NCBI GenBank assembly: GCA_019828565.1 | Contig: JAHDYR010000025.1 | Span: 682,001-746,000 of the forward strand | DNA length: 64,000 bases | From: Carpediemonas membranifera BICM | Taxonomy: Eukaryota > Protista > Fornicata | Direction of reading: 5' to 3' | Shown here: piece after piece, positions 4,886-61,682 of the stretch | Numbering within the stretch: position 1 is the stretch's first letter | Layout: every line of letters starts with the position of its first letter | Translations under genes and position numbers: made by a program | Notes under the pieces: model-generated | What the model was told of the DNA's origin: nothing | Seen by the model: the letters and a program-made list of their open reading frames with translations, nothing else | Database searches by the model: none

Positions 4886-5890
4886 ATGGCGGCACCAGAG
4901 CCCTCTCCAGGCCTCTTCGACAGCCGCGAGGTGCGAAATACAGGTGCACCGCCGATAGTTTATATTGGAGAACGAGAAAGTGACCGCCCGATTTTCCAAG
5001 CCTTCAGACTGAATCCAAAGTGCCCGATTGCACCCCAGAAGGTGCCATTTACCCTATTTCGCGACATATGCATTGCTTGGCATTCACTTGTTCATACTAT
5101 TCCAGGTCCAGTGACGTATCTCTGTCTTAACAGTGTGATCCACGCCACGCTCTTTGCGGTCGGCACCGTTGTCGCTGTGTTAGGCACTGCCCTCTGGTTG
5201 TCTGTCAAGACCGTTGTATCCCTCAGCAAGACCGAATCCATCATTTCTGCCGCCATTCTATGCTCTTTCGTCCCATTTTGTGTCATCCTAATCCACATCG
5301 CAAGTCGGTATTTGTGGGCCCGCGGCTTTGAGCACATGGTACGATCTCTGACTCAGGGCCCGACCACGTTCGACGACTGGGTGCTTCTTATGCCGCCGCC
5401 CGACATCCACGTCACCGTCCTCAGCCATGCCGCTGGCATTGTGGTGCTACTGTGTGTCGCCCAGCTGATCCCCATCGCAGGATCCATCGTGGTGTTCATC
5501 ATCAGCTCTATCAGCCTGTCAGTTATTTGGGTGGCGATGGTATTCTCGCCGCAGCTCTCGATTTCGGCAACTGTAGAAGCAGCATGCTCTGCCCTCCTCT
5601 ATAACCCGCTGTACGCCGTCGTAATCTGCCTTGTGAATATAGTCGAGCCTCTTATCATCCTGGTCCCGTTCGCCGGGCTCATGTTCAGTCCATTCGCTCA
5701 CTCCCTCACCATCGTCATCTCATGCCGCATACTTGGTATGACAATCGTAGACGTTCGCGGCACTGGTGAAGACACCATGGCTGACGGTGATAACTCCGCG
5801 CAGCCCCCCGCCGAGCACAGCGACGCGCCATGGGCGTCTACGGACGAGATCACGGTCAACCCGACCGAGTTCACGCCGCTTCTGGTGTGA
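4886..5890 (+). CDS. Multi-pass membrane protein, unknown function
   Basis: First ATG at 4886 (MAAPEPS); several hydrophobic segments. Confidence 0.7.
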   Translation: MAAPEPSPGLFDSREVRNTGAPPIVYIGERESDRPIFQAFRLNPKCPIAPQKVPFTLFRDICIAWHSLVHTIPGPVTYLCLNSVIHATLFAVGTVVAVLGTALWLSVKTVVSLSKTESIISAAILCSFVPFCVILIHIASRYLWARGFEHMVRSLTQGPTTFDDWVLLMPPPDIHVTVLSHAAGIVVLLCVAQLIPIAGSIVVFIISSISLSVIWVAMVFSPQLSISATVEAACSALLYNPLYAVVICLVNIVEPLIILVPFAGLMFSPFAHSLTIVISCRILGMTIVDVRGTGEDTMADGDNSAQPPAEHSDAPWASTDEITVNPTEFTPLLV

Positions 5891-6862
5891 GCGGCGGTGT
5901 CTCTGTACAGTTACTTCTCATTTCTCCCTTTTCTCTGCAAGACAACCCCTTCTCTTTGCGTCTCAAACTTGCCGGATCGCCGAACGGGTTGGCCGAGCGA
6001 CTCTTCGCGAGGTGCGCCCCGGGAAGGGCCAGATGGCAAGCCCTGGTCGCGTCTATTTTTAGCAGATACATTTTTTCCACGAATCCCCAACCATTTTTAG
6101 CAACAGAATACCTGATACACGGTTACTTCGAAATGAACAAGCTTTTCGTCTTCTTTGCATGCTTCGCGGTTGCTTTTGCCGCATCTGAGTTCGTCTTCCC
6201 CAAGAATGGCTCCAAGATGATCATTGGCGAGCTCAACAACGTTACCTGGCCCGATGTCTACACCAACCCCCTCGCTACCGGCCAGCTCACCTTTGAGTTC
6301 AACTCTGAGACCCTCCAGGACATCCTCAAGGAGACCAACATGACCACCACCGACCGCCAGACCGACGTTTGCCCCATCCCCATCGGCGCCGACTCGAACA
6401 TCCCCATCGACCTCCGCATCCCCGTCGGCAAGATCCAGGACTTCATCGACTCCCTCAACCTCCCCATTGAGATCGACGTCGAGTCCATCGTCAACAACGT
6501 CCTCGCCAACGTCGACCAGCTCTCCGAGTCTGACCGCAACGTCACCATCGCCCTCTACAAGTGCAACGCCGAGGAGCCCGACTACGTCTCCTGGGTCGTC
6601 ATCGACTCCGCTAAGAGCATCTTCGTCGGTGCCCTCGCCGTCCTGCTCTCGGTCTTCCTCCTCCTCTAAGGGGTATAAATAATGACACTGAGCCTTTACC
6701 GTGATCAGCGGGTCGCCCCTACCCTTCCATGTCGTCGTCGTTCGCCTCGATCTCGTAAACCATCTCCTCGTCGGCGCACCGCTTCTGGCAGATCTTGATG
6801 ATGGTCTCCCACTCGCCCTCAGGCTCCTTGCTCAGGCTCAGCGGGATCAGGTCGAACACGCC
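5806..6862. repeat. Right arm of the inverted duplication; includes an orphan copy of the PHD gene 3' end (6719-6862)
   Basis: Reverse complement of 3819-4857. Confidence 0.95.
6133..6669 (+). CDS. Surface protein, 178 aa (copy 2, identical protein)
   Basis: Same translation as 4012-4548. Confidence 0.8.
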   Translation: MNKLFVFFACFAVAFAASEFVFPKNGSKMIIGELNNVTWPDVYTNPLATGQLTFEFNSETLQDILKETNMTTTDRQTDVCPIPIGADSNIPIDLRIPVGKIQDFIDSLNLPIEIDVESIVNNVLANVDQLSESDRNVTIALYKCNAEEPDYVSWVVIDSAKSIFVGALAVLLSVFLLL

Positions 6863-18737: not shown

Positions 18738-18982
18738 CGCGATGCGTACGGGCTTGGCGGCCTGGACCGGCAGTAATCTGGATAAATACGTAAATTTGCA
18801 ATGTCTGGAAAGATGGTTTGGACTTGGTGTGCGTTGCGTCATGACTGATGCACCAGGAGCCCCGCTCCGGTCTCCCGGTACTACAACGGCCGGTTCATAC
18901 GGGGATAGGTCGCACTGTCTCTGGCCGGGGCACAGTTTCCCTGCCAGCCATGAGGCCTGGTGCATGGGGTACGGCGGGGTGC

Positions 18983-21900
18983 TGTCATGACGACCTCATT
19001 TAATGATCAGTCTTATTTGGTCAATGATCTCAAACCTGCTTCTAAATTTCACTCTCTCAATTGTTTGGGTACCACAGTAATTACTGCATGCATTTACCTG
19101 AAACAAAACTCAACAACGCCCCGTTCCTGCGAAAGGCCACCACCAAGTCGTGGTATACTTTCCGTCAAGACTACGAGCAGTATGCTGCCCGTGAAGCCGA
19201 TCCGATCGTTGCCTTTGACCTAATCGAAACGCAGGTCCTAGAGGTTCTTAAGATCCGAATCCCTGAACTTGAGGGGTTCCTTGAGTACGCTAATGAAACG
19301 CCGGATGAAGAGCCGGCCGATACCTCTGAACTCAACGAGGCCTTTATCACCATGGTAGACGAGCTGATGCAGCCTCTGGATGAGGTGGACGCTTTAGATC
19401 GCTTTAAGGACTTGTCGTGCGGCTCTGAGGGTAACCTCATTGACAACATGGCCGCGTATGCCCTGGCGTATAAGCGTCAAGTTCGTAACTGTTGTAAGGT
19501 TCGGCCCACGGAGAAGCTCATCGTCGATGCCTTTGTTGCTGGCATCAGGTACGGTCGCTTGAAGGAGCGAGTGAATGCTAAGAAGGCGAAGACGCTTGAC
19601 GAGACGATCGCCGAGGCATTCATCCAGGCCACGGAAGCAGAGAAGGCTCGCAGAGAGCACCAGCGTGTGGAGCGAGAGAGTGCGACCTCCGCAACGATGA
19701 CTAAGGCTAAGGAGAAGTCGGAAACTGCTTGTGAGTACTGCCAGCGCAAGGGTCACACTGCTGATACGTGTTGGAAGCGTAAGCGTGACGAGCGTGAGGG
19801 AGTAAAGGGGCAGAAGTACGTTCATCTTAATGCTTTGGTCGCGGAGGACCGCGACAACAGACCCATTGGCGAGGTGGGCATCCTGGGGAGAGTGTTGGCG
19901 TTCCTTTATGACACAGGGGCCTCTGCCGACTTTATATCCCAATCCCTCGTCAAAGAGCTCGGCCTAGTCGTCGAGCCCGACCATGCTAAGGTTAAGCTGG
20001 CCACTGGTACGATTTACAACTCACCCGGCATTGTTAAGTTGAGTGCAGATTTTGGAGTGTTGCCATCTACTGGGCGGAGAACTCAAGCTGCTCTCAATTT
20101 GCGGGTGCTACCCGGGCTGAAGCCGACATTAGTTATGGGAATATCGACATTAAGTGCGTTGGGGCTAATCACGATCGTCAAGCCGACGATGGAGAATTCT
20201 GGAGAGCCACACTTCGCGGAGCTTGATGAAGATGAAGTAGACGAGACGTTATTTACCCTTGCTGAAGCGGAGCACGAACTACAGATACGTAGCTTCCCTG
20301 AAGAGACTAATACCATCCTAAGCAAGTACAAAGACGTTCTCGGCGACATTTCGCAGCCAGCAGACGTTCCACCCTTCGAACTGGTTCTTACAAACCAGAA
20401 GGTTATCAACATCCCTCCATACCACGTCTCGGCTGAAGAAAGAGAGGATATGCAGCGCCAGACGGCGCAGCTGGAGGATCTGAATGTGATTGAGGAGTCT
20501 ACGAGCAACTATAACAATCCTACGGTGCTTGTATGGAAGCGCGATCGCACCCGCAGGCTCTGCTTGGACTTTCGGCGCCTTAACGACGCGACGGAGGACT
20601 TCGATCACGACCTCCCTATCATTGACGATCTGGTAGCAAGACTAGAGGGTAAGACCCTCTTCGCTAAGCTGGACCTAAGCAAGGCCTTTCACCAGATTCC
20701 TATGACCAAGAGCTCACGCAGACTAACGGCGTTTACAGTTGGGAAGCGTAAGTACCAGTACAAGCGTTTAGCTTTCGGACTCAAAGGGGCCGCAGCCTTC
20801 TGTCAGAAGACCCTCGAATCCGTACTAGGCGATGCACTGTGGACACGGTGTCTCGCATATGTAGACGACATAGTAATATTCGGAGAGAACCAGAGAGAGT
20901 ACCTCGACAATCTGGACTATGTCTTGAGAAAGCTCAACTCGGCCAAGTTGAAGCTGAATCTGTCCAAGTCTGAGTTCGGACTGACAGAAATAGAATACTT
21001 GGGCTGGCTTGTGAATGGCGACGGCAAGCGAATCGCGCCTGACCGCCTAGAAGGCATCGACCGCCTAACCAGCCCGAGAGATGTTGCCGGAGTCAGAACC
21101 TTACTCGGGTTCACGAACTATTTTAGCCATATGATTCCGAACTACGGCAATATGATGGAGCCAGTCCTGGCTCTGACGAGAGCCAAGGAAGAGTTCCGTT
21201 GGGAGAAGGCCCAACAAGATGCCCTAGTCGACATCAAAGCGACCCTATCTCAGAACAACATGTTAAGTCACCCCAAGCGTGGCTGCCAATTAATCCTACA
21301 AACCGACGCGAGTGACTACGCTGTCGGGGCAGTTTTGTTACAGATCGAAGACGGGGAGGAGCGTCCGATTGCTTTCTATTCCAAGACACTATCGGATGTT
21401 CAAAGAAGGTGGAGCACCTATGAAAAGGAAGGCTTCGGCATTTATTACGCTATGATCAAGGCCGAGCGGTTCCTAGTAGGCAGGCCGTTTACTGTGAGAA
21501 CGGACCACCGGAATTTGCTGTATATCGCGACAAGCACGAACGCTAAGGTAACTAGATGGCGCATGGCACTGGAAAGGTTCGACTATTCCGTCGTACACGT
21601 GCCTGGTCAAGCGAACGGTGCTGCCGACGCGCTATCTCGCCTATGCGGTGCAACAGTCGAGGCAGATGATCACGCCACGTGGATCTCCGAGGTTCACGGA
21701 GGCATACACGGCCATCTCGGAGCGAGAGCGACGGTGAACAAGCTTATATCGCTCGGTAGGAGGTGGAGGGGCATGTATAAGGACGCAGAGGAGTTTGTCC
21801 AGTCGTGTCCTGTGTGCCAGGTCACGCGCAAGACGGCCAAGCCCGTCCAACACTTGTGCCACCGTACGGCAGGTCGCCTGCCGTTTGATGTCGTGCAGGT

Positions 21901-23327
21901 AGACACGATCGGACCCATCGCGGAGAGCGAGGGTCTGCGGTACGTGTGCGTGTTAATTGACACGTACTCGAAGCTAACTATGCTGGTCCCCACGCGTTCG
22001 ACGGACGCAGATGCCGCGGCAGGGGCAATTTTGGCCTGGGTGGGTCACTACGGAATTCCCCGGGTGATTCACAGCGACGGGGGCAGCCAGTATAGAAATA
22101 AGCTGATTGACGCTCTAATGGAAAGGCTCGGGTCGCAACATCACGTCGGCACGCCTTACCGCCCGGGTTCTCAAGGAATAGTTGAGAGGGTCAACGCCGA
22201 GGTTAAGAGGCATCTAGAGACGCTAATGCTCGATCTGCAGGAGTTTAGATGGACGCGGCTACTACCTTTGGCTCAGTACATCATTAATTCAACATCTGTG
22301 GCCAGGACAGGCCTATCGCCACTGAATTTGCTTTATAACCAAGACGTGGTCGTAAGACCAGAAGAGATCATGAGCAATGAGAGCAAGATGCCATTTGAGG
22401 CCTTCAAGCGCAGCCTAGAACTACAGAGAGTCATCCAAGACCAGGCGCTGCAACAACAAACACCATCAGAAGCATCACACGTGGCCCTATCGAACAAGCC
22501 AGTGCTGGTAACGACCACTGTCGGCCGCCGCACGAAGCTGGCTGGGCCAATGTGGTGCCAGGGACCCGCAGAGTCGCCGAACGTTTACTACGTGGAGAAC
22601 CTGACGACAGGCGTAGTGGCTAAGGTCCATGCCGAGCGTCTAAGACATTTTGAGTCTGACGCGACAAGGGCTGAGTTGACACGGCTCGCGGCCCAGAGAG
22701 TTGACGAATATGTCGTAGAAGCGATCGACTCTCACAAATTTGAGGACGGCGTCCTTCACCTACATGTGCTGTGGGAGGGGTACCTCGAGGAAGAGGCGAC
22801 ATGGGAACGCTTCAACGCCGACCTTGATGAACTTAGGGCGTTTGAGGAGTACCTCGCAGACAAACCGAGTTTGCGCAGAAAACTCCGAGGTCAAAGGAAA
22901 TTAGCTTCCTATAGGCAGCGCTAATAACCAACGGCTCATCAAAAAGCCATTTTGGGGTTTTGCCCAGTTGGTGACCGCAGCCTAGGGGGGGAAGAGCAGA
23001 ACGTTGGAATCTAGTTACTGATATTGGTTATTTCTTATGTTCTACACCATTCTGTCCGCTATTTGTTCGTTTAGAACAGCGTTCTTCAGACTATTGTGCT
23101 CAATTGCGTTTTTGACTTCACTGGAGTCGGTCTGGCGGGTTTTGCATTTCGCCGGACTTGAACCGTTAGAATTTTTGCTGACGGTTGGGAGGCACGTTTG
23201 AGCTTGTGGACGGTTTGGGATCATGGGGGGAAGTGTCATGACGACCTCATTTAATGATCAGTCTTATTTGGTCAATGATCTCAAACCTGCTTCTAAATTT
23301 CACTCTCTCAATTGTTTGGGTACCACA
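18983..23327 (+). mobile_element. Chromovirus (Ty3/Gypsy) LTR retrotransposon 1, full length
   Basis: Identical 94-bp LTRs TGTCATG...ACCACA at 18983-19076 and 23234-23327; TSD GGTGC at 18978-18982 and 23328-23332; PPT GGGGGGAAG 23225-23233. Confidence 0.97.
19088..22924 (+). CDS. Single Gag-Pol polyprotein: CCHC knuckle, protease (DTGA), RT (YVDD), RNase H, integrase, chromodomain
   Basis: Motifs in Gypsy order; EYVVEAIDSH...VLWEGY..EEATWE chromodomain. Confidence 0.95.
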   Translation: MHLPETKLNNAPFLRKATTKSWYTFRQDYEQYAAREADPIVAFDLIETQVLEVLKIRIPELEGFLEYANETPDEEPADTSELNEAFITMVDELMQPLDEVDALDRFKDLSCGSEGNLIDNMAAYALAYKRQVRNCCKVRPTEKLIVDAFVAGIRYGRLKERVNAKKAKTLDETIAEAFIQATEAEKARREHQRVERESATSATMTKAKEKSETACEYCQRKGHTADTCWKRKRDEREGVKGQKYVHLNALVAEDRDNRPIGEVGILGRVLAFLYDTGASADFISQSLVKELGLVVEPDHAKVKLATGTIYNSPGIVKLSADFGVLPSTGRRTQAALNLRVLPGLKPTLVMGISTLSALGLITIVKPTMENSGEPHFAELDEDEVDETLFTLAEAEHELQIRSFPEETNTILSKYKDVLGDISQPADVPPFELVLTNQKVINIPPYHVSAEEREDMQRQTAQLEDLNVIEESTSNYNNPTVLVWKRDRTRRLCLDFRRLNDATEDFDHDLPIIDDLVARLEGKTLFAKLDLSKAFHQIPMTKSSRRLTAFTVGKRKYQYKRLAFGLKGAAAFCQKTLESVLGDALWTRCLAYVDDIVIFGENQREYLDNLDYVLRKLNSAKLKLNLSKSEFGLTEIEYLGWLVNGDGKRIAPDRLEGIDRLTSPRDVAGVRTLLGFTNYFSHMIPNYGNMMEPVLALTRAKEEFRWEKAQQDALVDIKATLSQNNMLSHPKRGCQLILQTDASDYAVGAVLLQIEDGEERPIAFYSKTLSDVQRRWSTYEKEGFGIYYAMIKAERFLVGRPFTVRTDHRNLLYIATSTNAKVTRWRMALERFDYSVVHVPGQANGAADALSRLCGATVEADDHATWISEVHGGIHGHLGARATVNKLISLGRRWRGMYKDAEEFVQSCPVCQVTRKTAKPVQHLCHRTAGRLPFDVVQVDTIGPIAESEGLRYVCVLIDTYSKLTMLVPTRSTDADAAAGAILAWVGHYGIPRVIHSDGGSQYRNKLIDALMERLGSQHHVGTPYRPGSQGIVERVNAEVKRHLETLMLDLQEFRWTRLLPLAQYIINSTSVARTGLSPLNLLYNQDVVVRPEEIMSNESKMPFEAFKRSLELQRVIQDQALQQQTPSEASHVALSNKPVLVTTTVGRRTKLAGPMWCQGPAESPNVYYVENLTTGVVAKVHAERLRHFESDATRAELTRLAAQRVDEYVVEAIDSHKFEDGVLHLHVLWEGYLEEEATWERFNADLDELRAFEEYLADKPSLRRKLRGQRKLASYRQR

Positions 23328-23342
23328 GGTGCGTGTCCGACT

Positions 23343-26300
23343 TGTGCTATTGAAGGGTCAAACAATGTGTTTACTGAGGAGGTTTAGACCCGTGGTGGTG
23401 TAAATGGTCCAAACTAGGGGATTTGAATGCATCACTACCCCCCCTCCTTCAATGCGATGTCTAATCCTGCCGAGTGCCATTTGATTGGCGGGCCGACATT
23501 CTGAGCTTCAAATCATCAAACCGCTTCATGGCTTCCTCTAGGGGTGTATTCACCTGCAGGTACTGCTGAAGTATCGCATTGCCTCTCATATCCTCGTCTG
23601 TTGGGTTTCTCCACGTGTCGTCTGCTGGTTCGTATCCTAACCAGCGCACCTTCACCTCTGGCGTCTTCATCACGTCCTTCTTGATCCTGTGCGTGACGAT
23701 CTCTTTGATATACGTGTGCATACGGTCCTTGGCGCATTCTGCCTTCGCCTTCTCCTCATCCCAGTCGCCTTCTGCGAGCTTCAGATGCTTCACGTGCTTC
23801 TTATACGTCTTGTTCGTCTCGGGGTCCCTTATCACGAACGAGCTGGCGTTTCCAGGTGCCTTCTTGACCACCTGAAGTGGGCCTCTCCATCGTAGCTGGT
23901 ACTTCCCTCTCTGTTCTGCATCCCTGTCGACCATGACCCACGCCTTGGCTGTGATACGGGTCGGTGTCCTCTTGTTGTGCTTGTCCTGTCTGGCCTTGGC
24001 CGCGTCGTACGTCTTCTTCGCCGCGTCCCTGCGCTGTTGAGCTCTCATCTTCTCGTTCCGGACCATCTTGTCAATGACGTCCGTAACGTCGGCTCTCTCC
24101 TGGTTCGACAGTGTCATCTTCCCTTCCCGCTCTGTGGACACCACTAGCTTCCAGGGTGACGTGCCTGTCGTGGCAGATCTAGCCTGGTTGATGATGTTCT
24201 GAACCGCTGGCAGTAGGCCCATCCATTGCTTCGTGCCGCGCTGATGCATCTCGTCCCTGAGGTGGCGGTTCACTTCGCGATTCCTGCGCTCAACGATCCC
24301 ATTCTCCTCGTGATGGTATGGGGTGGTCGTCTTCGCGCCCCCGCCTAGCTCTGCCGCGAACGACTTGAACTCCTTCGAGTCGAACTGCCGTCCGCTATCG
24401 GTCACCCACTCGACCGGGGGCGGGAAGTGTGTGAGGTATCTTTCCCTGATTGCTCTGATGGTGGCGGCGGAGGTCACCGTCTTCAGTGGGCACAGGGTGA
24501 CCCACCTCGTCGACTCCTCCACCAGCACCAGGATGTACCGGTAACCCTGGTCTGCCTCTGCCATGTTGATGGTGTCGGCGAACACGCGACTGAACGGCGA
24601 CGCTGGCATGCGCAGCTGCTCCTGATATTGCTCGCGTGACCGGTGTTCGGCGTTCTTCTGGCACACGGGGCACTCCTTAACCATCCTCTGGACGTCCGTG
24701 TCCGCAGTGTCCCAGCGCAATCCCTTATCCTCGAGCTTCCACAGCGTCTGGTCAACCCCGTGGTGACCGGTGCCAGGTCCGTGAACGGACTTGAAGCGTG
24801 GCAGCTTCTGGGACTCGGGTATGGCCGGGAACGTGCCCTCCTCTTCGGGCTCGGCGTCAAGGGTGTCGCCCTCGTCTGTCCCGGCTGCTTCCTCGGTGTC
24901 GCTTTCGTCTGCCTCGTCGCGCTCGCGGTCAGGCTGTCCTGCCGCCTCTTCGCGGAACCGAACTCTCGGCTCGTCGGCGGCGACTTCTTCCGACTCTTCC
25001 TCCGCTGCGTCGACTGCACACATCACGGACACGATCGCACCCTGCTGCTCTGGTGTCAGGCTCTCGGCTTCTGCGCGGGGCATTCTGGACAGGCCGTCCG
25101 CGACCGTATTAGACTTACCAGGCACGTGGGTGATGCTGAACTTGAGGTTGCCCAGCTCAAGTGCCCAGCGCTGCACCATGGGGTCGACGTTGCCCCACGT
25201 GTACACGAGGTTACGGTGGTCCGTGAACATCTCAAACTCCCCTTGTGGCTAGGAACCGTCTCATCTTCCTCGTGGCCGCTATGATGGCGAATGCCTCCTT
25301 GCGGTAGGTGCTCCACTTGCGCTGGCTTGCTGTCAGGGCCTTGGAGAAGAACATCACAGGTCGCTTCGACCCGTCGTCCTCGACTCTGACCAGCACTGCG
25401 CCGACACCGGTGTCGGACGCGTCGGTGAACAGCTGTAGGCGGTCGTCAGGGCCCGGTGTGACCAACAGTGTGGGGGAGGTGACGATCTTCTTCAGTCTCT
25501 TGAACGCCTCTCTCTGGGGGTCGCCCCACACGAACGTCTGGCCCTTGATCTCCAGCTTGCGGATCGGCTCGGTGATGTCCGCGTAGCCGGGGATGAACTG
25601 GGAGAAGAAGTTGAAGATGCCCAATGTGGACCTGACGTCACTCACGTTTGTCGGGTCGGGCAGCTCCTGGACACCCTGGACGCGCCATGGGGGGATGCGC
25701 TTTCCCTCCGCCGACACTATCCATCCGAGGTACTCCACCTCCGTCAACCCGAAAAAGCACTTGTTCTTGTTGAGCTTCAGCTTCTTCTCTCGCACCCGGT
25801 CCATCACCCGCATCAGGTTCGCCTGGTACTCTTCCCAGGTCGACCCATAGACGATGATGTCGTCCACGTACACAAGACACGCCGTGCCCAGCATGTCCGC
25901 GAAAGCCTCCTCTAAGGCCTCTTGCATATGGCCAGCCGCGGTGGCAAGGCCGAACGGCATCGTAGTGTAGGTATAGTGCCCCTTGGAGTACGTGAACGCC
26001 AGGTACTCCTGTGTGTCGGGGTGCACCGGGACCTGATGGAAGGCCTTGCTGAGGTCAAGTGCTGCGAAGTACTTGTTGCCCCTCAGCCTCTCGATCAGCT
26101 CTTCCGTCGACGGCAAGTCGTGCTGAGTCATGGACGCCAGGAGCTCGTTCAGTGGCGAGTAGTCCATGCACGGCCGCCACGTCCCGGCCTTCTTCCGCAC
26201 CATGACCACTGAGCTGCTCCAGGGAGACTTGGTTGGGATGATGATCCCGCTTTCCTCCAGCTTCTGCATCTCTGACCGGAGTTCATCCTCCACCTGTCTT

Positions 26301-27989
26301 GGGAACCTTCGGGGCAGACGGAAGTAGGGTCGGGCGTCCTTCTTCAGCGTGACCTTGAACGGCTTAAGGTCTGCTGGTTCGCCTGCATCGCCGAAGCAGT
26401 CGCTGTATCTCTCGGCCCAGTCCTCTGTGAGCTTGGAGATGACCTGGATGGGGGTCTGCTTCGGTGTCAAGGTTGCGGTTGATTAGGCCGAGGGAGTCAA
26501 TCACCTCCATGTTGATGAGGAACGACTCGGCCTTGTCCATCGCATACCAGGTCGGCGTCGCGGTGACCTCTCTGTCGAGGTGGAGGGTGATCGGCACATC
26601 TGACAACACTCGGTAGACCCTCCTCATCGACTCGTCAGCCAAGCGGACTGTCTCGCCCCGCGTGGCGATCTTCAGTCCCTTCTCGACGGCCCAGTCCCTC
26701 GGCACGACGCTGAACGAGGAGCAGGTGTCCATGCGGACGATCAACTCTTCGCCCAGCAGACTGGCCTTCTCCTGCCAGATAGTCTTGGACGCTAACATAA
26801 AACAGAAAGGATACTCAGATGGCTTTACAACTGTGCACTGGTGCGACTTGTGGCCGAACTCGCCGCACCTGAAGCACTTCGGCTCCTCGTGTGGGCAGTC
26901 GGCCGAGTCGTGACCCTTTTCGCCGCAGTTGAAGCAGCCGCGGCCCCCTTGCCGCCGCTCAGGCTTGGCCCCCTCGGCCGCGCCGTCATTGCGTCTGCGC
27001 TCTCCCGTCCTCGCTGGCATCTTCCGCTCCTCTCTCGGCTTGCTCTGCAGTGACTCGAGCTGCTTCTGTAGGGCCGCGAGCCGGCTGCTCGGCACCAGGT
27101 CAAACTCTCGCATGGCATCTGTTCGGGCCCGTAGGTACTTTGCTATGACCTTCAACGACTTCGCGACTGTTGACTTGGAAAGAACAACAGAGCGAAGAGA
27201 CGATGCGATCGTCTCGTCATCGAGGCTCGCCAGAACGATCTCCTGGAGCTCTCTAGCATCCAGGGATCCGACCTTCTCGAACAGATCTACCATATCCGTG
27301 AACACATGGCGGTAACGGGTGAAAGAGGTCTCACGGAGCTTGCGAAGCTCGCGGTACGCGCGCTGAAGACTGATATTGGTTAGTGTGGCCTCAGCCATCA
27401 CCACCCAGCGCTCATCGCGCTTCCTCCTCGTTGTCTTCGCCTCCTTCTTCTCTTGGTCTTGAGCCATGATGTACCGGAGCAAAGCGTCGTCCCGGGCGGT
27501 CGTCTTGCCGCTTGTCTTCTTCTTCCGGGCCGGGTTAGCGATGAGTGTGCTCCGGGCGTCATCCTCGGAGTCGCTCTGGGCGTGCGCGTCTTCGCCGCCC
27601 CTGCTGCTGTCGCTACCCTCGTTGGCGCTGAACATCTCCTCGTCGTCTTCACTCGAGCTGTCAGAGCTGTCATCGGAGCTTTCGTCGTCCTCCAGAGCTT
27701 GGTATGCGTCCTTGATACTTGTTCTCACTTTCGCGTCGATGCACTCGAAGAGGGTCTTCGGCTTGACCTCATCTTCAGCATAGAGTGCGTAGCTCATGCG
27801 GAACCTCACCCAGTCGGCTGCAGTGTGCCGGAGATACTTCGGGTAAGTCCCTTTTGGGTCGTCGTCATCGTCATCCTTCTTCATGCGTAGTAATTACTGT
27901 GCTATTGAAGGGTCAAACAATGTGTTTACTGAGGAGGTTTAGACCCGTGGTGGTGTAAATGGTCCAAACTAGGGGATTTGAATGCATCA
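23343..27989 (-). mobile_element. Chromovirus LTR retrotransposon 2, full length, different family
   Basis: Identical 92-bp LTRs at 23343-23434 and 27898-27989 (sense TGATGC...AGCACA); TSD CGACT at 23338-23342 and 27990-27994; G-rich PPT on the minus strand next to 23435. Confidence 0.97.
23461..27884 (-). CDS. Gag-Pol of element 2, split by two apparent 1-nt homopolymer frameshifts (~26452 and ~25240)
   Basis: Two CCHC knuckles, DTCS protease, YVDD, FTDASD, DDE integrase, chromodomain VRWLGYEPADDTW; removing one base from each homopolymer restores a single ORF. Confidence 0.9.
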
Positions 27990-28026
27990 CGACTGCAGCC
28001 GAGTTGCTTGGCAACGAACGAACGAC

Positions 28027-29562
28027 ATGAGCAATGAAGGCAAGAAGACGCGAGAGGCGCTGATCACTGCCCATCGGCTCTCAATCACGGCTACGAGCAG
28101 CATCGCAGGCGACATCCCCTCGCTCATGGCCTGCGCGTACCAGCGCCACTTCAACGAGGAGATTCCGCTCAGATCTGGCGTGCTGTCCGCATTAAGGACG
28201 TTTATCCACAATCATACAACCACAGACGCGCCGCAAGATGGCCACGATCTCGAATCACTCCTCGCCACGCTCTCAGAGATCCCCCCTCTCGAGCCATCCG
28301 CGCAAGCCCTCCTCGACCACGCCCGCTCGATCCTCACCAGCGGCCCCCTGCTGTCCATGAACGTCGAGCTCGCGGATGGCGAGGAGCTCCCGGTCGCGCT
28401 GCACACGCTGAACCAGGGCGCGGTGTGGGCGTGTCTGGTGGGTGGCGGGGCCAACCCCGACCTCGAGGGCAGGGTGCTGAAGAAGGCTCGAGAGGAGCAG
28501 CCAGGTAAGACTAATATGCATGACAAGATCCGCAAGGCTCTCACCCCCGAGGCCAAGTGCCTCTGGTTCCTCTGCCGCAAGTTCTTCTTCTCGCTGAACG
28601 TCGCCGAGAAGGACGGCGAGAGCTATCAGTGGAATTGGCACGACATATGCCACCACCACCGCATGTACATGGGCCGACTCTTCATGCTCAGTACTGCCAA
28701 CCACACCGCCCTCACCAGGGCCAGGATGCCCAGGGCCCTCGAGGTCTACAGCGACAGGTACACCCACATCGCCAGGACGCCCAAGGGTCTGTGGGGCTGG
28801 GGGGAGAACTATTATGGTCAGCTGGGGTTCAAGTCATCTGAGTTCGTCGACCCGACCCGCCTCACCTTCCCCGCCTGTACCAAGGTCGCCGAGCTCGAGG
28901 CCAGCCTGCCCCCTTGGGAGAAGCATACGATGGTGACTGATGTGTCGATGAAGGGATGGCAGACGTTCATAGTCACCCCGGTCGGCACTGTCATGGCGGG
29001 CGACGAGACACGATGGTATACAGACCTTGTTCAAGAATACGATAACCGCTTCCACCCAGTCGCTGTGCCCGCTGGATTTATCCCAGATCACATCGTGCAT
29101 GAATATGATATTGTCATACTCTCCATGTGCAATCGGTATGTGATCAGTGGCAATAACTGTCATGGCCAGCTGGGACTCGGGCACGAGAATGATATGGCTG
29201 GCTTCGAGGAGCTTCCTTTCAGAGTCGACCGGATCATGCCATCTCATTCCTTCCATGTCTTCCTCAGCAGCCGTCAGCTGCTGTTCGCCGGGCAAGTCCT
29301 CTCTCATATCGTCCAGTCTGGCCTGTTGCCAGGATACAGAGAGGGCGACAGGTGCCTCACAGCCACCCCGCTCCGCTTCCTTGCGAGGGTCAAGGGGTTC
29401 TTTTGTGACCAGTTGACTCTCGTCTGGGTCAATGAGGGCAGCACTCATCTGTGTGATTACGACAAGCAGTGCTCTGTGCCCTTTGAGGCGACAGCACTTG
29501 GCAGTAAAGTAGGACTCTCAATCGTCTATAGCAGACTTCATTTGGAGCGGGTGCAGTTTTAG
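28027..29562 (+). CDS. RCC1/BLIP-II-like propeller family protein, copy A (C-terminus replaced after 29504)
   Basis: WGWGENYYGQLG, SGNNCHGQLGLG repeats. Confidence 0.85.
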   Translation: MSNEGKKTREALITAHRLSITATSSIAGDIPSLMACAYQRHFNEEIPLRSGVLSALRTFIHNHTTTDAPQDGHDLESLLATLSEIPPLEPSAQALLDHARSILTSGPLLSMNVELADGEELPVALHTLNQGAVWACLVGGGANPDLEGRVLKKAREEQPGKTNMHDKIRKALTPEAKCLWFLCRKFFFSLNVAEKDGESYQWNWHDICHHHRMYMGRLFMLSTANHTALTRARMPRALEVYSDRYTHIARTPKGLWGWGENYYGQLGFKSSEFVDPTRLTFPACTKVAELEASLPPWEKHTMVTDVSMKGWQTFIVTPVGTVMAGDETRWYTDLVQEYDNRFHPVAVPAGFIPDHIVHEYDIVILSMCNRYVISGNNCHGQLGLGHENDMAGFEELPFRVDRIMPSHSFHVFLSSRQLLFAGQVLSHIVQSGLLPGYREGDRCLTATPLRFLARVKGFFCDQLTLVWVNEGSTHLCDYDKQCSVPFEATALGSKVGLSIVYSRLHLERVQF

Positions 29563-29590
29563 CCTCGCAGCAGTCGCTTGTGCGAGGAGA

Positions 29591-30361
29591 ATGAACGAGT
29601 TTGAGCGCTATGAGCGTCAGGTTCTCGTTCCCCAGATAGGAAAGGATGGCCAGAAGCTCCTTTCCGAGGCTAAGGTCTTGATCATCGGCGCTGGTGGCCT
29701 CGGCACCCCCGTGATTCAGTACCTCGCTGGCATGGGCGTTGGAGCCATTACAATCGTCGATCACGATACAGTAAGTATCACAAACCTCCACCGCCAAGTG
29801 ATCCACGGCGAGTCCTCCGTCGGCGTGAACAAGGCTGAGAACGCCGCTGCTGTCGTCCGAAACATCAACAGCGACATCACCGTTGCCGTACACACTGGCC
29901 CAGTCACACCAGACACAATGGGCTCCCTTGCAGCGGGCCACACGGTCATCGTCGACTGCTCCGACAACCTCCCCACCCGCTACCTCGTTGACCGGACCGC
30001 CTCGGCCCTTGGCCTGCCCCTCGTGCAGGGGACATGCCTCAGGACCGCGGGCCAGGTGTCGGTGTTCAACTACCCGCCCGGTGTGGGCCCACGGTACGCA
30101 GACGTCTTCCCTCGGCCGCCCCAGCCCGATAAGGTCACCACTGCCTCAGTCTCGGGCGTGTTCCCCCCTGCTTGCGGCGTTGTGGGCAGCTACATGGCCA
30201 GTGAAGTGGTCAAGGTTGTTCTCAAGAGCGAGGGCGTGCTTGCTGGCAGGATGCTGTCCGTCGACCTGTGGTGGGGCGAGTGCCGGGTCGTGCAGCTCAA
30301 GGCACGCGGTCAGGGCGAGGTGGAGGTGGCAGGTGGGTATCCCAACACGCCATGGGAGTAG
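29591..30361 (+). CDS. ThiF/MoeB/Uba4-type E1-like adenylyltransferase without rhodanese domain (copy 1)
   Basis: RYERQ..VPQIG..GQ.LL, IIGAGGLG, VDHDTVSITNLHRQ, DCSDN. Confidence 0.9.
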   Translation: MNEFERYERQVLVPQIGKDGQKLLSEAKVLIIGAGGLGTPVIQYLAGMGVGAITIVDHDTVSITNLHRQVIHGESSVGVNKAENAAAVVRNINSDITVAVHTGPVTPDTMGSLAAGHTVIVDCSDNLPTRYLVDRTASALGLPLVQGTCLRTAGQVSVFNYPPGVGPRYADVFPRPPQPDKVTTASVSGVFPPACGVVGSYMASEVVKVVLKSEGVLAGRMLSVDLWWGECRVVQLKARGQGEVEVAGGYPNTPWE

Positions 30362-30507
30362 GCCTTGGCCTTGTTGATTTTATGACGTGTGGGGCCGAGG
30401 CTCCGCGGGTAATGGTAAATTTAGTCATTAATACTTGAACACTAGCCTAGCACACCCTGGGGCAAGGGTGGCGGCCATCAGCAAGGGTTGGCCTTATCGC
30501 GCGCACG

Positions 30508-31615
30508 ATGAACACCTCGGCGCGGAAGAACTTCTTTCACATCGCAGCGGGGTATACAGATGATGCAGGCGGTTGCTATCCCACAGTATCATCCATGCGA
30601 TCCGCATATTGCCATCTCTTCCGTGCTAACCGCAATTACCTCAAACACTACAAAATGCGTACTCTCAAAGGCGTGAAGACCATCAACGCCTTCGATACGA
30701 TCCCAACAGGTACCGGTGCGATCATATCCGACAACACGGGCATCTACTACCACCCCATCGGTGCCCCCCGACGAGCTCCACCGCTCAACCCTCGTCTCCA
30801 TCCCCGCCGCAGAGCTCTACGCGGACTGGCCCAACAGGAAGGTGGTCTCCCTACGCAGTGACCGGCGCGGCCTCCTCTTGGTGGACATGGAGACCGGCGC
30901 GGTCACTCAGCACCGCGAGGACACGTCGATACGGTCTCTCCTGTCGTCAGCGGACGGCCACGGGTACTTCATTGCCAATGGCAAGCTATGCAGACTCGAC
31001 CCACGAAAGGCGGAGGTCTGCGCGACGTTCACTGTGGAGCAGCGTGCGAAGGGCACTTTCGGGGCGGCTTCGAGTCGGTCTGCCTTGTCGGCTGCCGTGA
31101 CGGACAACATCGCGGCTGTTTCGATGAGTGATGACTCGCTATGTCTCTTCGACCTCCGGAAGTCCGGAGTCCTGACCAGCCTGCCCATGCCGGAACCTTT
31201 TTCGCGCACCGCTTTTTCTGGCAACACACTTTTATGCGTCGGCAAGCGATCTGGCACAATCGACTTAGCCCAACCCCGGCCCACGTTCGAGGCCGTCGCA
31301 GAGACCCCCGTCATCACCATGGGCGACAACGGCGTCGTCCTCGCCGACCCATCCCGACCCTGGCGGCCTCCAGTGACTCTATCCCACGGCCCGCAGCCCC
31401 TAGCATTGCCCGCCGTTCCCCAGGTCCGGGGTGACCTGGCGCTGCTGCCCGTGGGCAAGAGTACCGAGGTGTTCACCACTGCGGCCGGGCTAAGGCGGGT
31501 TGGGTGTGTCGCTGGCGTTGCTGCGATTGCCGAGGCTGAGAATGGAGTGCTTACATGCGACCCCCTGGGGCAACTCGGCTTCGGGCGAGTGACTCGTCGC
31601 TTTGTCATGCGGTGA
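30508..31615 (+). CDS. WD40-like protein with a DxR motif, possibly DCAF-like (copy 1; frameshift in C run ~30765)
   Basis: SDDSLCLFDLRK; the two copies' frameshifts are complementary and give one ~370-aa ORF. Confidence 0.6.
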
Positions 31616-31759
31616 GCAGGTCGGGCCAGTCAGAGTTCACGACGGCCTGTCTGACAGCTCTCCAGGGCCGGGTCGAGTCAGTGGTTTTGGTGGCACGCTT
31701 TGGGTGGAGATCAACGTGCTGGGTACATCTACACAGTTGCCCAGTTGTGTATAAAGGAC

Positions 31760-31885
31760 TCACACCACGTGGTTGACATAGACAATCTCGTCGGCCCGAA
31801 GCACGAAGAGGAGCTCGTCCATGCTGCTGACATCCATCGCCATGGGCTCTCCGAACGTCGGCATGTCGACGTTCCTTGCCTCCTC
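31760..31885 (-). pseudogene. 3' remnant of the RCC1-like gene type found at 40692-42372 (repeated at ~37211-37336)
   Basis: NVDMPTFGEPMAMD.SSMDELLFVLRADEIV.VNHVV nearly identical to the 3' end of the gene ending at 40692. Confidence 0.75.
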
Positions 31886-31989
31886 GGTGCAGCACTCCTC
31901 TTTTGGAATGTGCAGAATAAGGAATAGCCAAACGACATTTTGTCGTTCGAAATGATGAAAGATCAAATCGGGAGCTGAATCAAACAGAA

Positions 31990-32978
31990 ATGAAGCACTT
32001 ATTTATTGCTTTAGCAGTATTCGCGACGTTTACGTCCTCAGCTTGTCTTGATCTCCCAAATTCATTCGATGCCCGCAAGAAATGGGGCTCCTCCTGTCCT
32101 GTGTTGCATGACATCAAAACTCAGGAACACTGCGGATCTTGTGCCTTTCTTAGCATTGCACAAGTTGTATCCGATCGCCACTGCATCGCCACCGGCAGCT
32201 CCATTCCCTTTTCCGCCCAGTGGCTGATGTCCTGCGTGGACTATGAAAAGAGCCTGACTGGGTACCTTGCAATGGAATTCCGGGAAACATGGTGTTTGAC
32301 GCCGTGGTTGAGCACGGGATGGTCCCAGAGACCTGCCTTCCATACAGCTCGAACGACTGGGTGACTCCCGCCTGCCCCGCGACTTGCAACGACGGTACCG
32401 CATTCAACAAGCGCACATACACGATCAAAGAGTACGGCATTATTGACAGTGCCTCTGATGACATTGTGACTGCCATCCAGGAGGAGATCTTCCTCCGCGG
32501 GCCGCTGTTCGTGGCCATAGATGTGTACTCCGACTTCAATGACTATGAGACTGGCGTATACACCTGCAACCAGCATTCAGACGAGGAACCGGGCGCACAC
32601 GCCGTTCGAATCGTCGGCTGGGGCGTCGAGGACGGCATCCCATACTGGCTCTGCACCAACACCTGGGGCCGGGAGTGGGGCAGCGATGGCGCGTTCAAGA
32701 TCCGCCGTGGCGTGAATGAGTGTGGGATCGAGGGAGGTTTCAGCGCCTTCCCGATCTTCGACCGCAGTGGCTGGGCTCTGGCGAGGATGTGGGCAGGCAA
32801 GCTGGTGTCAGGCGTTTCATTCCTAATCGCTGGCCTTCAGTTCTGCAGCGATGTTCTCTCGGTGAAGCCGTTGGCTGCGGTGTCCCTCCGTTCCCGTCGC
32901 AAGGATTTGTGTGAGAGCAAGGAGAAATCCGAGTACGCTGGTCGCGGGCATCGAGCTATCGACTTAAAGATGGATTGA
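31990..32978 (+). CDS. Cathepsin B-like C1A protease (copy 1; frameshift in A run ~32247)
   Basis: LPNSFDARKKW, QEHCGSC, HAVRIVGWG, WLCTNTWG, FKIRRGVNECGIE. Confidence 0.88.
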
Positions 32979-33476
32979 TTGGCCGACTGCATTTACTGAG
33001 TTCAACCGACAACTGCATCATGCCGGGCAGCGAGTGTCAGATCACGATCAAAGTGAAGCCCGAGTGGCCGAGACGTTGGCCGCATGCTGGCATGAGTTGT
33101 ACCGGGAGACCCGGATTGAGATGGGACGCGGAAACAACGATGCGCATGCACCAGGCCAGGGGAAGACCCACGGGATCCTTTAGGACAGCTGACTCACCGC
33201 TTCAATGCTCTCATTGGCACCCCTTTCCCACTCGGTCGACTGCATCTGAGATTGATCTATTGAAAGTGCCGTCTTCTTCTCCTGGCACCAGCGCAGCCGG
33301 GCAGGGTCACTCGCCCTCAGCACCACTGTTCACCCAAGACTCTCTTTCACACTCATGCCGAGGCGCCTGTCTCTGGCCGGGGCACAGTTTCCCTGCCAGA
33401 CATGAGGCCTGGTGCATGGGGTACGGCGGGGTGCGTGTCCGACTGCAGCCGAGTTGCTTGGCAACGAACGAACGAC

Positions 33477-35013
33477 ATGAGCAATGAAGGCAAGAAGACG
33501 CGAGAGGCGCTGATCACTGCCCATCGGCTCTCAATCACGGCTACGAGCAGCATCGCAGGCGACATCCCCTCGCTCATGGCCTGCGCGTACCAGCGCCACT
33601 TCAACGAGGAGATTCCGCTCAGATCTGGCGTGCTGTCCGCATTAAGGACGTTTATCCACAATCATACAACCACAGACGCGCCGCAAGATGGCCACGATCT
33701 CGAATCACTCCTCGCCACGCTCTCAGAGATCCCCCCTCTCGAGCCATCCGCGCAAGCCCTCCTCGACCACGCCCGCTCGATCCTCACCAGCGGCCCCCTG
33801 CTGTCCATGAACGTCGAGCTCGCGGATGGCGAGGAGCTCCCCGGTCGCGCTGCACACGCTGAACCAGGGCGCGGTGTGGGCGTGTCTGGTGGGTGGCGGG
33901 GCCAACCCCGACCTCGAGGGCAGGGTGCTGAAGAAGGCTCGAGAGGAGCAGCCAGGTAAGACTAATATGCATGACAAGATCCGCAAGGCTCTCACCCCCG
34001 AGGCCAAGTGCCTCTGGTTCCTCTGCCGCAAGTTCTTCTTCTCGCTGAACGTCGCCGAGAAGGACGGCGAGAGCTATCAGTGGAATTGGCACGACATATG
34101 CCACCACCACCGCATGTACATGGGCCGACTCTTCATGCTCAGTACTGCCAACCACACCGCCCTCACCAGGGCCAGGATGCCCAGGGCCCTCGAGGTCTAC
34201 AGCGACAGGTACACCCACATCGCCAGGACGCCCAAGGGTCTGTGGGGCTGGGGGGAGAACTATTATGGTCAGCTGGGGTTCAAGTCATCTGAGTTCGTCG
34301 ACCCGACCCGCCTCACCTTCCCCGCCTGTACCAAGGTCGCCGAGCTCGAGGCCAGCCTGCCCCCTTGGGAGAAGCATACGATGGTGACTGATGTGTCGAT
34401 GAAGGGATGGCAGACGTTCATAGTCACCCCGGTCGGCACTGTCATGGCGGGCGACGAGACACGATGGTATACAGACCTTGTTCAAGAATACGATAACCGC
34501 TTCCACCCAGTCGCTGTGCCCGCTGGATTTATCCCAGATCACATCGTGCATGAATATGATATTGTCATACTCTCCATGTGCAATCGGTATGTGATCAGTG
34601 GCAATAACTGTCATGGCCAGCTGGGACTCGGGCACGAGAATGATATGGCTGGCTTCGAGGAGCTTCCTTTCAGAGTCGACCGGATCATGCCATCTCATTC
34701 CTTCCATGTCTTCCTCAGCAGCCGTCAGCTGCTGTTCGCCGGGCAAGTCCTCTCTCATATCGTCCAGTCTGGCCTGTTGCCAGGATACAGAGAGGGCGAC
34801 AGGTGCCTCACAGCCACCCCGCTCCGCTTCCTTGCGAGGGTCAAGGGGTTCTTTTGTGACCAGTTGACTCTCGTCTGGGTCAATGAGGGCAGCACTCATC
34901 TGTGTGATTACGACAAGCAGTGCTCTGTGCCCTTTGAGGCGACAGCACTTGGCAGTAAAGTAGGACTCTCAATCGTCTATAGCAGACTTCATTTGGAGCG
35001 GGTGCAGTTTTAG
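33477..35013 (+). CDS. RCC1-like family copy B (extra C at ~33840)
   Basis: Otherwise the same translation as copy A. Confidence 0.8.
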
Positions 35014-35041
35014 CCTCGCAGCAGTCGCTTGTGCGAGGAGA

Positions 35042-35812
35042 ATGAACGAGTTTGAGCGCTATGAGCGTCAGGTTCTCGTTCCCCAGATAGGAAAGGATGG
35101 CCAGAAGCTCCTTTCCGAGGCTAAGGTCTTGATCATCGGCGCTGGTGGCCTCGGCACCCCCGTGATTCAGTACCTCGCTGGCATGGGCGTTGGAGCCATT
35201 ACAATCGTCGATCACGATACAGTAAGTATCACAAACCTCCACCGCCAAGTGATCCACGGCGAGTCCTCCGTCGGCGTGAACAAGGCTGAGAACGCCGCTG
35301 CTGTCGTCCGAAACATCAACAGCGACATCACCGTTGCCGTACACACTGGCCCAGTCACACCAGACACAATGGGCTCCCTTGCAGCGGGCCACACGGTCAT
35401 CGTCGACTGCTCCGACAACCTCCCCACCCGCTACCTCGTTGACCGGACCGCCTCGGCCCTTGGCCTGCCCCTCGTGCAGGGGACATGCCTCAGGACCGCG
35501 GGCCAGGTGTCGGTGTTCAACTACCCGCCCGGTGTGGGCCCACGGTACGCAGACGTCTTCCCTCGGCCGCCCCAGCCCGATAAGGTCACCACTGCCTCAG
35601 TCTCGGGCGTGTTCCCCCCTGCTTGCGGCGTTGTGGGCAGCTACATGGCCAGTGAAGTGGTCAAGGTTGTTCTCAAGAGCGAGGGCGTGCTTGCTGGCAG
35701 GATGCTGTCCGTCGACCTGTGGTGGGGCGAGTGCCGGGTCGTGCAGCTCAAGGCACGCGGTCAGGGCGAGGTGGAGGTGGCAGGTGGGTATCCCAACACG
35801 CCATGGGAGTAG
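35042..35812 (+). CDS. MoeB/Uba4-like adenylyltransferase (copy 2)
   Basis: Same translation as 29591-30361. Confidence 0.9.
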   Translation: MNEFERYERQVLVPQIGKDGQKLLSEAKVLIIGAGGLGTPVIQYLAGMGVGAITIVDHDTVSITNLHRQVIHGESSVGVNKAENAAAVVRNINSDITVAVHTGPVTPDTMGSLAAGHTVIVDCSDNLPTRYLVDRTASALGLPLVQGTCLRTAGQVSVFNYPPGVGPRYADVFPRPPQPDKVTTASVSGVFPPACGVVGSYMASEVVKVVLKSEGVLAGRMLSVDLWWGECRVVQLKARGQGEVEVAGGYPNTPWE

Positions 35813-35958
35813 GCCTTGGCCTTGTTGATTTTATGACGTGTGGGGCCGAGGCTCCGCGGGTAATGGTAAATTTAGTCATTAATACTTGAACACTAGCCTA
35901 GCACACCCTGGGGCAAGGGTGGCGGCCATCAGCAAGGGTTGGCCTTATCGCGCGCACG

Positions 35959-37066
35959 ATGAACACCTCGGCGCGGAAGAACTTCTTTCACATCGCAGCG
36001 GGGTATACAGATGATGCAGGCGGTTGCTATCCCACAGTATCATCCATGCGATCCGCATATTGCCATCTCTTCCGTGCTAACCGCAATTACCTCAAACACT
36101 ACAAAATGCGTACTCTCAAAGGCGTGAAGACCATCAACGCCTTCGATACGATCCCAACAGGTACCGGTGCGATCATATCCGACAACACGGGCATCTACTA
36201 CCACCCCATCGGTGCCCCCGACGAGCTCCACCGCTCAACCCTCGTCTCCATCCCCGCCGCAGAGCTCTACGCGGACTGGCCCAACAGGAAGGTGGTCTCC
36301 CTACGCAGTGACCGGCGCGGCCTCCTCTTGGTGGACATGGAGACCGGCGCGGTCACTCAGCACCGCGAGGACACGTCGATACGGTCTCTCCTGTCGTCAG
36401 CGGACGGCCACGGGTACTTCATTGCCAATGGCAAGCTATGCAGACTCGACCCACGAAAGGCGGAGGTCTGCGCGACGTTCACTGTGGAGCAGCGTGCGAA
36501 GGGCACTTTCGGGGCGGCTTCGAGTCGGTCTGCCTTGTCGGCTGCCGTGACGGACAACATCGCGGCTGTTTCGATGAGTGATGACTCGCTATGTCTCTTC
36601 GACCTCCGGAAGTCCGGAGTCCTGACCAGCCTGCCCATGCCGGAACCTTTTTCGCGCACCGCTTTTTCTGGCAACACACTTTTTATGCGTCGGCAAGCGA
36701 TCTGGCACAATCGACTTAGCCCAACCCCGGCCCACGTTCGAGGCCGTCGCAGAGACCCCCGTCATCACCATGGGCGACAACGGCGTCGTCCTCGCCGACC
36801 CATCCCGACCCTGGCGGCCTCCAGTGACTCTATCCCACGGCCCGCAGCCCCTAGCATTGCCCGCCGTTCCCCAGGTCCGGGGTGACCTGGCGCTGCTGCC
36901 CGTGGGCAAGAGTACCGAGGTGTTCACCACTGCGGCCGGGCTAAGGCGGGTTGGGTGTGTCGCTGGCGTTGCTGCGATTGCCGAGGCTGAGAATGGAGTG
37001 CTTACATGCGACCCCCTGGGGCAACTCGGCTTCGGGCGAGTGACTCGTCGCTTTGTCATGCGGTGA
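35959..37066 (+). CDS. WD40-like protein (copy 2; frameshift in T run ~36682)
   Basis: Duplicate of 30508-31615. Confidence 0.6.
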
Positions 37067-61384: not shown

Positions 61385-61425
61385 GTCGTTCGTTCGTTGC
61401 CAAGCAACTCGGCTGCAGTCGGACA

Positions 61426-61664: not shown

Positions 61665-61682
61665 TTATCATATCAACAACAC

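Follow-up and report, generated by a model that had tools for sequence, protein, structure and literature searches.

How does an LTR retrotransposon begin minus-strand synthesis when no tRNA-type primer-binding site (PBS) follows its 5' LTR? The question is raised by two elements, here called A and B, that lie in the window (the whole stretch of 64,000 nucleotides that was analyzed). The gene content of the window indicates a compact, intron-poor, eukaryotic region with 58% GC, and includes genes for DNA polymerase delta, a Brr2-type helicase, Prp18 and RCC1-like proteins. A sequence-only reading of this DNA had claimed that the two elements share a palindromic site that is not complementary to a tRNA end, and had proposed an unusual mode of priming. 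We analyzed this site in both elements and in their relatives from other sequence collections.

Two LTR elements in one RCC1-like gene copy

The two young elements are inserted tail to tail within one copy of the RCC1-like gene family. Copies of this family without the A/B insertion are found at 33367, 38819 and 61490, and at the empty paralogous site in a 5.45-kb repeat the target sequence of A is present once. The run contigs also include an empty-site contig of a paralog of the insertion locus. The features of the two elements are the following.

18978..18982, plus strand: left target-site duplication (TSD) of A, GGTGC, with its right copy at 23328-23332
18983-23327, plus strand: element A as a whole, only 4.3 kb, with identical LTRs and an intact ORF
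18983..19076, plus strand: 5' LTR of A, 94 nt, TG...CA, identical to 23234-23327
19051, plus strand: candidate transcription start of A, where contigs of runs X1 and X4 begin behind a library adapter
19075..19086, plus strand: palindromic primer site of A, CAGTAATTACTG, a perfect 12-nt palindrome (from the sequence)
19076-19085, plus strand: core of the palindrome of A, AGTAATTACT, beginning at the last A of the LTR
19088..22924, plus strand: single, intact Gag-Pol ORF of A, 1278 aa, with protease, RT, RNase H, integrase and chromodomain (domain search)
23225..23233, plus strand: polypurine tract of A (from the sequence)
23234..23327, plus strand: 3' LTR of A, followed by the TSD and by no palindrome
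23328..23342, no strand: spacer between A and B, 15 nt, made up of the TSD of A, 5 nt of host DNA and the TSD of B
Within 23328-23342, with the other copy at 27990-27994, minus strand: TSD of B, CGACT (from the sequence)
27989-23343, minus strand: element B as a whole, with identical LTRs
23343..23434, minus strand: 3' LTR of B, 92 nt, identical to the 5' LTR
23435..23450, minus strand: polypurine tract of B (from the sequence)
23461..27884, minus strand: Gag-Pol of B, with zinc knuckle, RT, RNase H, integrase and chromodomain, in three frames in the assembly
27889..27898, minus strand: palindromic primer site of B, AGTAATTACT, a perfect 10-nt palindrome whose first base is the last A of the LTR
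27898..27989, minus strand: 5' LTR of B, 92 nt, identical to 23343-23434

The frame breaks of B may be assembly errors, because the run contigs differ by single bases near them. Both elements have the hallmarks of Ty3/gypsy (Metaviridae), namely LTRs of the form TG...CA, a TSD of 4-6 bp and a polypurine tract before the 3' LTR. Pfam domains follow the order protease, RT, RNase H, integrase and not the Ty1/copia order, in which the integrase precedes the RT. The best matches in a PDB sequence search include the Ty3-G polyprotein (E 7e-48), and a chromodomain (PF00385, Chromo) at the C-terminus of the integrase scores above the cut-off in both elements (E 5e-6 and 9e-6).

Positions 27990-40405 hold about 2.3 tandem copies of the 5.45-kb unit (RCC1-like, ThiF and a papain-family protease), which are 98-99.6% identical, and an inverted RCC1-like paralog lies at 59726-61672. 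A 1-kb inverted repeat (3819-4843 / 5837-6862, 99.9% identical, with about 1 kb between the arms) is possibly a DNA transposon or an assembly feature. No Rfam or tRNA matches were found in the 64-kb window.

Contigs assembled from runs X1 and X4, which come from one sample whose RNA status is a guess, begin at 19051. The string that precedes this position was taken as library adapter because the same string caps contigs at unrelated places. Transcription of A probably starts at 19051, although contigs by themselves are no proof of a start; if this is right, the R and U5 regions of A together measure only 26 nt. The contigs of the 5' part of A (19051-19812) end in an A-run at 19812, and contig depth over 19262-19720 is far higher in two runs, which possibly reflects a short transcript of gag only or a multi-copy derivative with a deletion.

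For B, a contig of run X4 from the same sample has the adapter at 27179 and an A-run after 27963, and would be a polyadenylated antisense RNA over the gag start, primer site and U5. A high-depth family in the run contigs shares the last 31-34 nt of the LTR of B (27898-27931, 23343-23376) and its LTR is only about 41 bp long; one of its copies has the TSD TGAGT and another has a purine tract before it. We had considered this a sister family that combines the U5 end of B with a TGG site, and withdrew the suggestion because the purine tract in front of that LTR makes it most likely a 3' LTR plus flank.

The site shared by A and B

Directly after both 5' LTRs stands GTAATTACT, and in both elements the palindrome begins with the last A of the LTR. 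The LTR of A is followed by GTAATTACTGC (11 nt) and an ATG at 19088, that of B by GTAATTACTACGC (13 nt) and an ATG at 27884; the short distances to the Gag start reported earlier, 11 and 13 nt, agree with these coordinates. Neither LTR is followed by TGG, the triplet expected for a tRNA primer. The further claim that the LTRs hold no complementary stretch was borne out over both whole elements with G.U pairs allowed, in that the 9 nt that follow the LTR find a 9/9 partner only in the site itself. Within the 64 kb, GTAATTAC, or the shared 8-mer, occurs only at the A and B sites. Palindromes of at least 10 nt are centred at 69 of the 64,000 window positions, that is 0.001 per base.

The elements had been described as dissimilar. 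Their RT-RNase H identity is indeed only 41-42%, but both fall in one small supported group of the tree described below, with L005 and P0005 (support 96), so the common 9-mer may be inherited. The next differences between A and B beyond this 9-mer are transitions.

Folding of the 5' regions of A and B gave z-scores of +0.4 to -1.2, no better than shuffled sequences, and cofolding gave a stable dimer for both. For the bare core AGTAATTACT of A, the computed energy is -9.0 kcal/mol as a duplex versus +1.5 kcal/mol as a hairpin.

Palindromes across a gypsy clade

A protein search with the RT-IN region returned 280 matches, mostly unnamed and with a best identity of 43%, and an alignment of A with 15 of them was used to fetch relatives. 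A scan of viral contigs with a single protein yielded no relative. Retained were 4 loci from a viral collection and, out of 562 confirmed metagenome matches, the best 80; these 84 loci together with A and B gave 86 sequences. No tRNA genes were found in 53 of 84 loci scanned. Three of the loci (L001, L002 and L003, from IMG/VR) are filed as uncultivated viruses, one of them within a giant-virus bin, yet are members of this retrotransposon clade.

Palindromes of at least 12 nt that are anchored to a CA and lie outside pol were found in 55 of the 86 sequences, versus 6.4 expected from dinucleotide shuffles. For a length of at least 10 nt, the corresponding figures are 71 of 86 and 20.4. Sites of at least 12 nt number 61 outside pol (250 kb) versus 2 inside pol (235 kb). 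In the relatives, a perfect palindrome follows the LTR from its terminal A, with other letters than in A and B, as in these examples.

L006: AGTGTTAACACT
L011: AGTTAGCTAACT
L013 (two elements): AATAAGCTTATT and AAATTGATCAATTT
L046: ATTGATCAAT
L066: AGTGATCACT
L070: AAATATATATTT

We picked 61 sites and removed L051, whose RT falls outside the clade, and six near-duplicates (L036, L059, L071, L075, L080 and L084), which left 54 curated families. Because the two LTRs are collapsed in most contigs, most of the 54 sites were chosen by the palindrome, and because of kinship among the families the counts are not independent. In L069, the site at position 54 proved to be in a rearranged piece of integrase coding sequence and was replaced by the site at 1643; the tallies of CHSeq2-like copies and Tf1-type partners, the median identity and the tree labels given below are based on the pick at position 54.

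The 54 families contain 36 distinct palindromes of 10-16 nt (10 nt in 14 families, 12 nt in 31, 14 nt in 4 and 16 nt in 5), with 15% GC versus 47% for the loci. TGG was found at none of the 54 curated sites, and an ATG-led ORF lies downstream of the palindrome in 51 of them, at a median distance of 46 nt. AGTAATTACT recurs in 5 of the 54 families. Five different palindromes are present in L005, L011, L013 (twice) and L041, contigs of one record series that need not represent a single host. Absence of the motif from other families had been named beforehand as evidence against an unusual site. The letters do differ across families, but self-complementarity and the register to the LTR end are conserved; since the letters vary while symmetry and register stay, the failed conservation of letters strengthens the case.

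An unrooted tree of RT-RNase H was built from 81 of 103 rows, near-duplicates and uninformative rows having been dropped. One branch splits 53 palindrome-bearing rows, labelled with the position-54 pick of L069, from 17 outside rows, with an SH-aLRT of 93 (the tool's mark is 95), and the same split received 0.88 in FastTree with all 103 rows. The outside rows include animal gypsy proteins and one protein named Tf2-like, which was the only such reference in a tree with no Tf1, Skipper, Chlamyvir or plant rows. Among the 59 palindrome-labelled rows, the median pairwise RT-RNase H identity is 35%. The palindromic site is a real, clade-wide feature of these gypsy elements.

Like the window, two of the loci hold paired elements: L013 carries two about 60 nt apart, and L041 likewise carries two. 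Together with the 5 nt that separate A from B, these pairs hint at an insertion hotspot or at chromodomain targeting.

Register, symmetry and exceptions

An LTR end was regarded as independently fixed where a second LTR copy has a different flank. In all 10 families with such an end (A, B, L006, L011, L013 twice, L018, L032, L059 via L060, and L070 via L076) the palindrome covers the terminal A of the LTR, and these 10 families hold 8 different palindrome sequences. The other 9 diverging repeat pairs were set aside by position as coding or permuted-overlap repeats, one of them in the outgroup locus L051. Extension of the palindrome over the C of the LTR occurs in 17 of 54 families, which is about chance, and the idea that such an extension is a trace of plus-strand read-through was dropped for lack of an excess.

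Close relatives show how the letters change. L055 and L059 share 98% of their RT-RNase H and 85% of their DNA sequence, yet at the very centre of the palindrome one has AT and the other TA, a matched change of both bases. The palindromes of L047 and L053 (78%) differ at several paired positions.

We then counted stems anchored to a CA in 80 sequences, with the centre unselected. Where the 4-nt centre is self-complementary, there are 56 stems outside pol versus 2 inside; where it is free, there are 118 outside and 118 inside, so the entire excess consists of fully symmetric sites. Over the 54 families, the bare homoduplex has a median energy of -10.4 kcal/mol (range -19.3 to -6.2), and some of these duplexes are weak. 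The corresponding hairpin has a median of +1.5 kcal/mol and lies below zero in only 6 of 54 families.

No site was picked in 26 loci. Five of these have outgroup RTs (L058, L062, L063, L078 and L079), L004 has no long RT, 15 lack the LTR-gag junction (12 were inspected and 3 judged from the length of the sequence), and 5 are imperfect. The outgroup locus L079 has a TGG-type site and no palindrome. In L012 (3268) and L073 (194) a palindrome follows TA instead of CA, and in L029 (4091) a palindrome is present without CA, which suggests LTRs with a non-canonical end. The junction of L082 is ambiguous, and the apparent LTR end of L037 lacks a perfect palindrome. The outgroup RT of L051 (6045) is accompanied by a CA-anchored 12-nt palindrome about 1.6 kb after the pol match, which may be due to chance, a chimera or a second origin.

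A model for priming and its alternatives

The palindrome sits where minus-strand synthesis must begin, and no alternative primer site is present. Because its symmetry is kept and its letters are not, a fixed host primer is unlikely, and the combination of self-complementary centres with unstable hairpins favours an intermolecular duplex. A host primer would fix the sequence and a hairpin would free the loop; as neither is seen, pairing between packaged RNAs is the simplest reading. From these sequence features we put slightly better than even chances on the palindrome replacing the tRNA PBS and on the elements priming their minus strand in trans with their own RNA.

In such a mechanism, the two RNAs of one particle would pair through the palindrome as an antiparallel duplex. 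One strand would be cut at the end of the duplex or a few bases inside it, likely by the RNase H of the element as in Tf1. The freed, capped 5' fragment, which in A would start at 19051, reach into the palindrome and measure about 32-35 nt, would then prime synthesis over the U5-R of its partner. Plus-strand DNA would later copy the primer and restore an identical palindrome for use in the second strand transfer, and through the heteroduplex formed there a change in one arm could pass to the other.

The earlier proposal of a tRNA-independent priming site is thus supported, and priming at the site is predicted from features of the sequence. It had left three routes side by side, namely pairing between the packaged RNAs, fold-back priming and an internal tRNA fragment. 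We favour the first, disfavour the second and consider the third unlikely because the letters of the site differ freely between families.

In fold-back priming, a cut directly behind the palindrome would leave the RNA with a 3' end that snaps back in cis as a small hairpin and copies U5. A single RNA would be enough for the first step, the register to the terminal A would be explained, and the 6 hairpins with negative energy fit this route. Its version for symmetric sites holds that the centre is symmetric only because the primer copy has to match the genome copy at the second strand transfer, so full symmetry could arise if that transfer requires it. However, 10-mers yield stems of only 3 bp, the median hairpin is unstable, free-loop stems are not in excess, and there is no stable structure that could define the cut, in line with the folds of A and B. 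We regard fold-back priming as unlikely.

The palindrome could also be a signal for dimerization or packaging, like the retroviral dimer initiation site (DIS), with priming by another route not yet seen. A DIS likewise needs an intermolecular duplex and tolerates sequence change, the cofolded dimers of A and B are stable, and Donnart et al. raise the DIS comparison for the fungal GalEa elements (PMC5445492). A DIS need not begin exactly at the last base of the LTR, however, as the palindrome does in 10 of 10 families, and it exists in retroviruses beside a PBS (PMC5445492), while here neither TGG nor a Tf1-type partner is left as another primer site. We consider this explanation quite unlikely.

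Only a slim chance is given to symmetry that acts on DNA, either in the second strand transfer or when a cDNA end that is extended or forms a hairpin is processed, or that is a by-product of such a step. About half of Tf1 cDNA keeps a single-stranded copy of the PBS at its 3' end (PMC11042837), so the PBS region matters at the DNA stage. This explanation leaves the primer itself unexplained, and 3' LTRs with real flanks have no remnant of the palindrome at the ends checked (0-2 shared bases).

Priming by a host RNA, whether a tRNA half, an internal piece of a tRNA or some other small RNA, is very improbable. Half-tRNA primers are known in Ty1/copia lineages (PMC6317226). In elements of the Osser, Bianca and Ty5 type, the PBS matches the anticodon arm of a host tRNA. 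The 9-mer common to A and B, the transitions next to it and the recurrence of AGTAATTACT would also fit a host primer. Against this, 36 different sites would need 36 primers, each of them self-complementary, and the one record series alone holds five different palindromes. A putative tRNA D-arm or U2-like host primer pairing with G.U wobbles had been considered from the differences between A and B, and was dropped because the relatives show many different palindromes.

Classical Tf1-type self-priming, in which the start of the transcript acts as primer, is scarcely credible and largely refuted for A and B: a chromodomain is present and TGG absent as in the Tf1/sushi group, but the 15 nt after the probable start of A (placed from contigs) pair with the site at only -0.8 kcal/mol, neither element has a 9/9 partner elsewhere, and within up to 127 nt upstream, which covers longer LTRs in part, a 9/9 partner occurs in 0 of 54 families and an 8/9 partner in 2.

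If priming between packaged RNAs is true, these elements would form a deep, widespread and apparently undescribed Ty3/gypsy clade, and the mode would have arisen separately in Copia, in fungal GalEa. The dimeric genome would gain a direct catalytic role, and the element would be freed from host tRNAs. Conserved symmetry and register with drifting letters predict that priming requires a pair of RNAs and that complementation in trans is possible. A CA followed by a palindrome would also serve as an annotation signature for elements that LTR finders based on a tRNA PBS score as lacking one. Being intact, with identical LTRs and only 4.3 kb long, A is a practical test element.

Comparison with known systems

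A 2019 survey of plant elements distinguishes three types of primer, namely whole tRNAs, half tRNAs and self-priming in cis (PMC6317226). GalEa and Skipper are among several groups that are left with 'no primer identified'. We see an even chance that the clade described here uses a fourth start mode, in which one packaged genome is cut to prime the other. Neither a palindromic PBS in gypsy elements nor priming between packaged RNAs was found in the full-text literature searched, a body that subscription journals and Repbase lie outside.

Tf1, Tf2 and Tj1, and the Tf1/sushi/Tcn1 group, resemble A and B in being Ty3/gypsy elements with a chromodomain and without a tRNA primer (PMC7175516, PMC4600332, PMC6317226). 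Tf1 particles contain an RNA dimer, and the Tf1 primer is produced by RNase H, which cleaves an RNA duplex of 11 bp between bases 11 and 12 (PMC7175516). Likewise, the primer proposed here would come from the 5' end of the RNA of the element itself and be released by cleavage of a duplex of about 11 bp. [quoted passage not shown] In the dictyostelid Skipper, the LTR is followed by a polypyrimidine stretch and not by a palindrome, and no primer is known (PMC5006619). Retroviral DIS and Ty1 palindromes share with our sites a short palindrome that pairs two packaged RNAs, but they are present beside a tRNA PBS and are not fixed to the last base of the LTR (PMC5445492).

The closest parallel is GalEa, a group of fungal Ty1/copia elements with a Conserved Hairpin Site and without a tRNA PBS (Donnart et al. 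2017, PMC5445492). The 9-bp sequence after its LTR becomes palindromic once the final A of the LTR is counted, giving CTGATCAGT or CTAATTAGT, and most of its variants affect positions 3 and 6, which pair with each other in the palindrome (PMC5445492). The site was proposed as a replacement of the PBS, and the authors state that no model fits (PMC5445492). In GalEa as in the gypsy clade, the palindrome includes the final A of the 5' LTR. The two differ in that GalEa belongs to Copia and the clade of A and B to gypsy, and in that GalEa has a nearly complementary sequence, CHSeq2, 12-41 bp downstream (PMC5445492); a CHSeq2-like copy at that distance with at most 1 mismatch occurs in 1 of 53 families (with the position-54 pick of L069), and the best copies in A and B have 5 and 3 mismatches. 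They differ further in that two sequences cover 85% of GalEa families, versus 36 palindromes of 10-16 nt in 54 families of the gypsy clade. Pairing between packaged RNAs would offer a mechanism for the unexplained GalEa palindrome. In the literature searched, the palindromic site is new for gypsy elements, and the same geometry has already been published for GalEa Copia (PMC5445492). Our analysis extends the GalEa observation to a clade of gypsy elements and suggests a mode of priming that can be tested.
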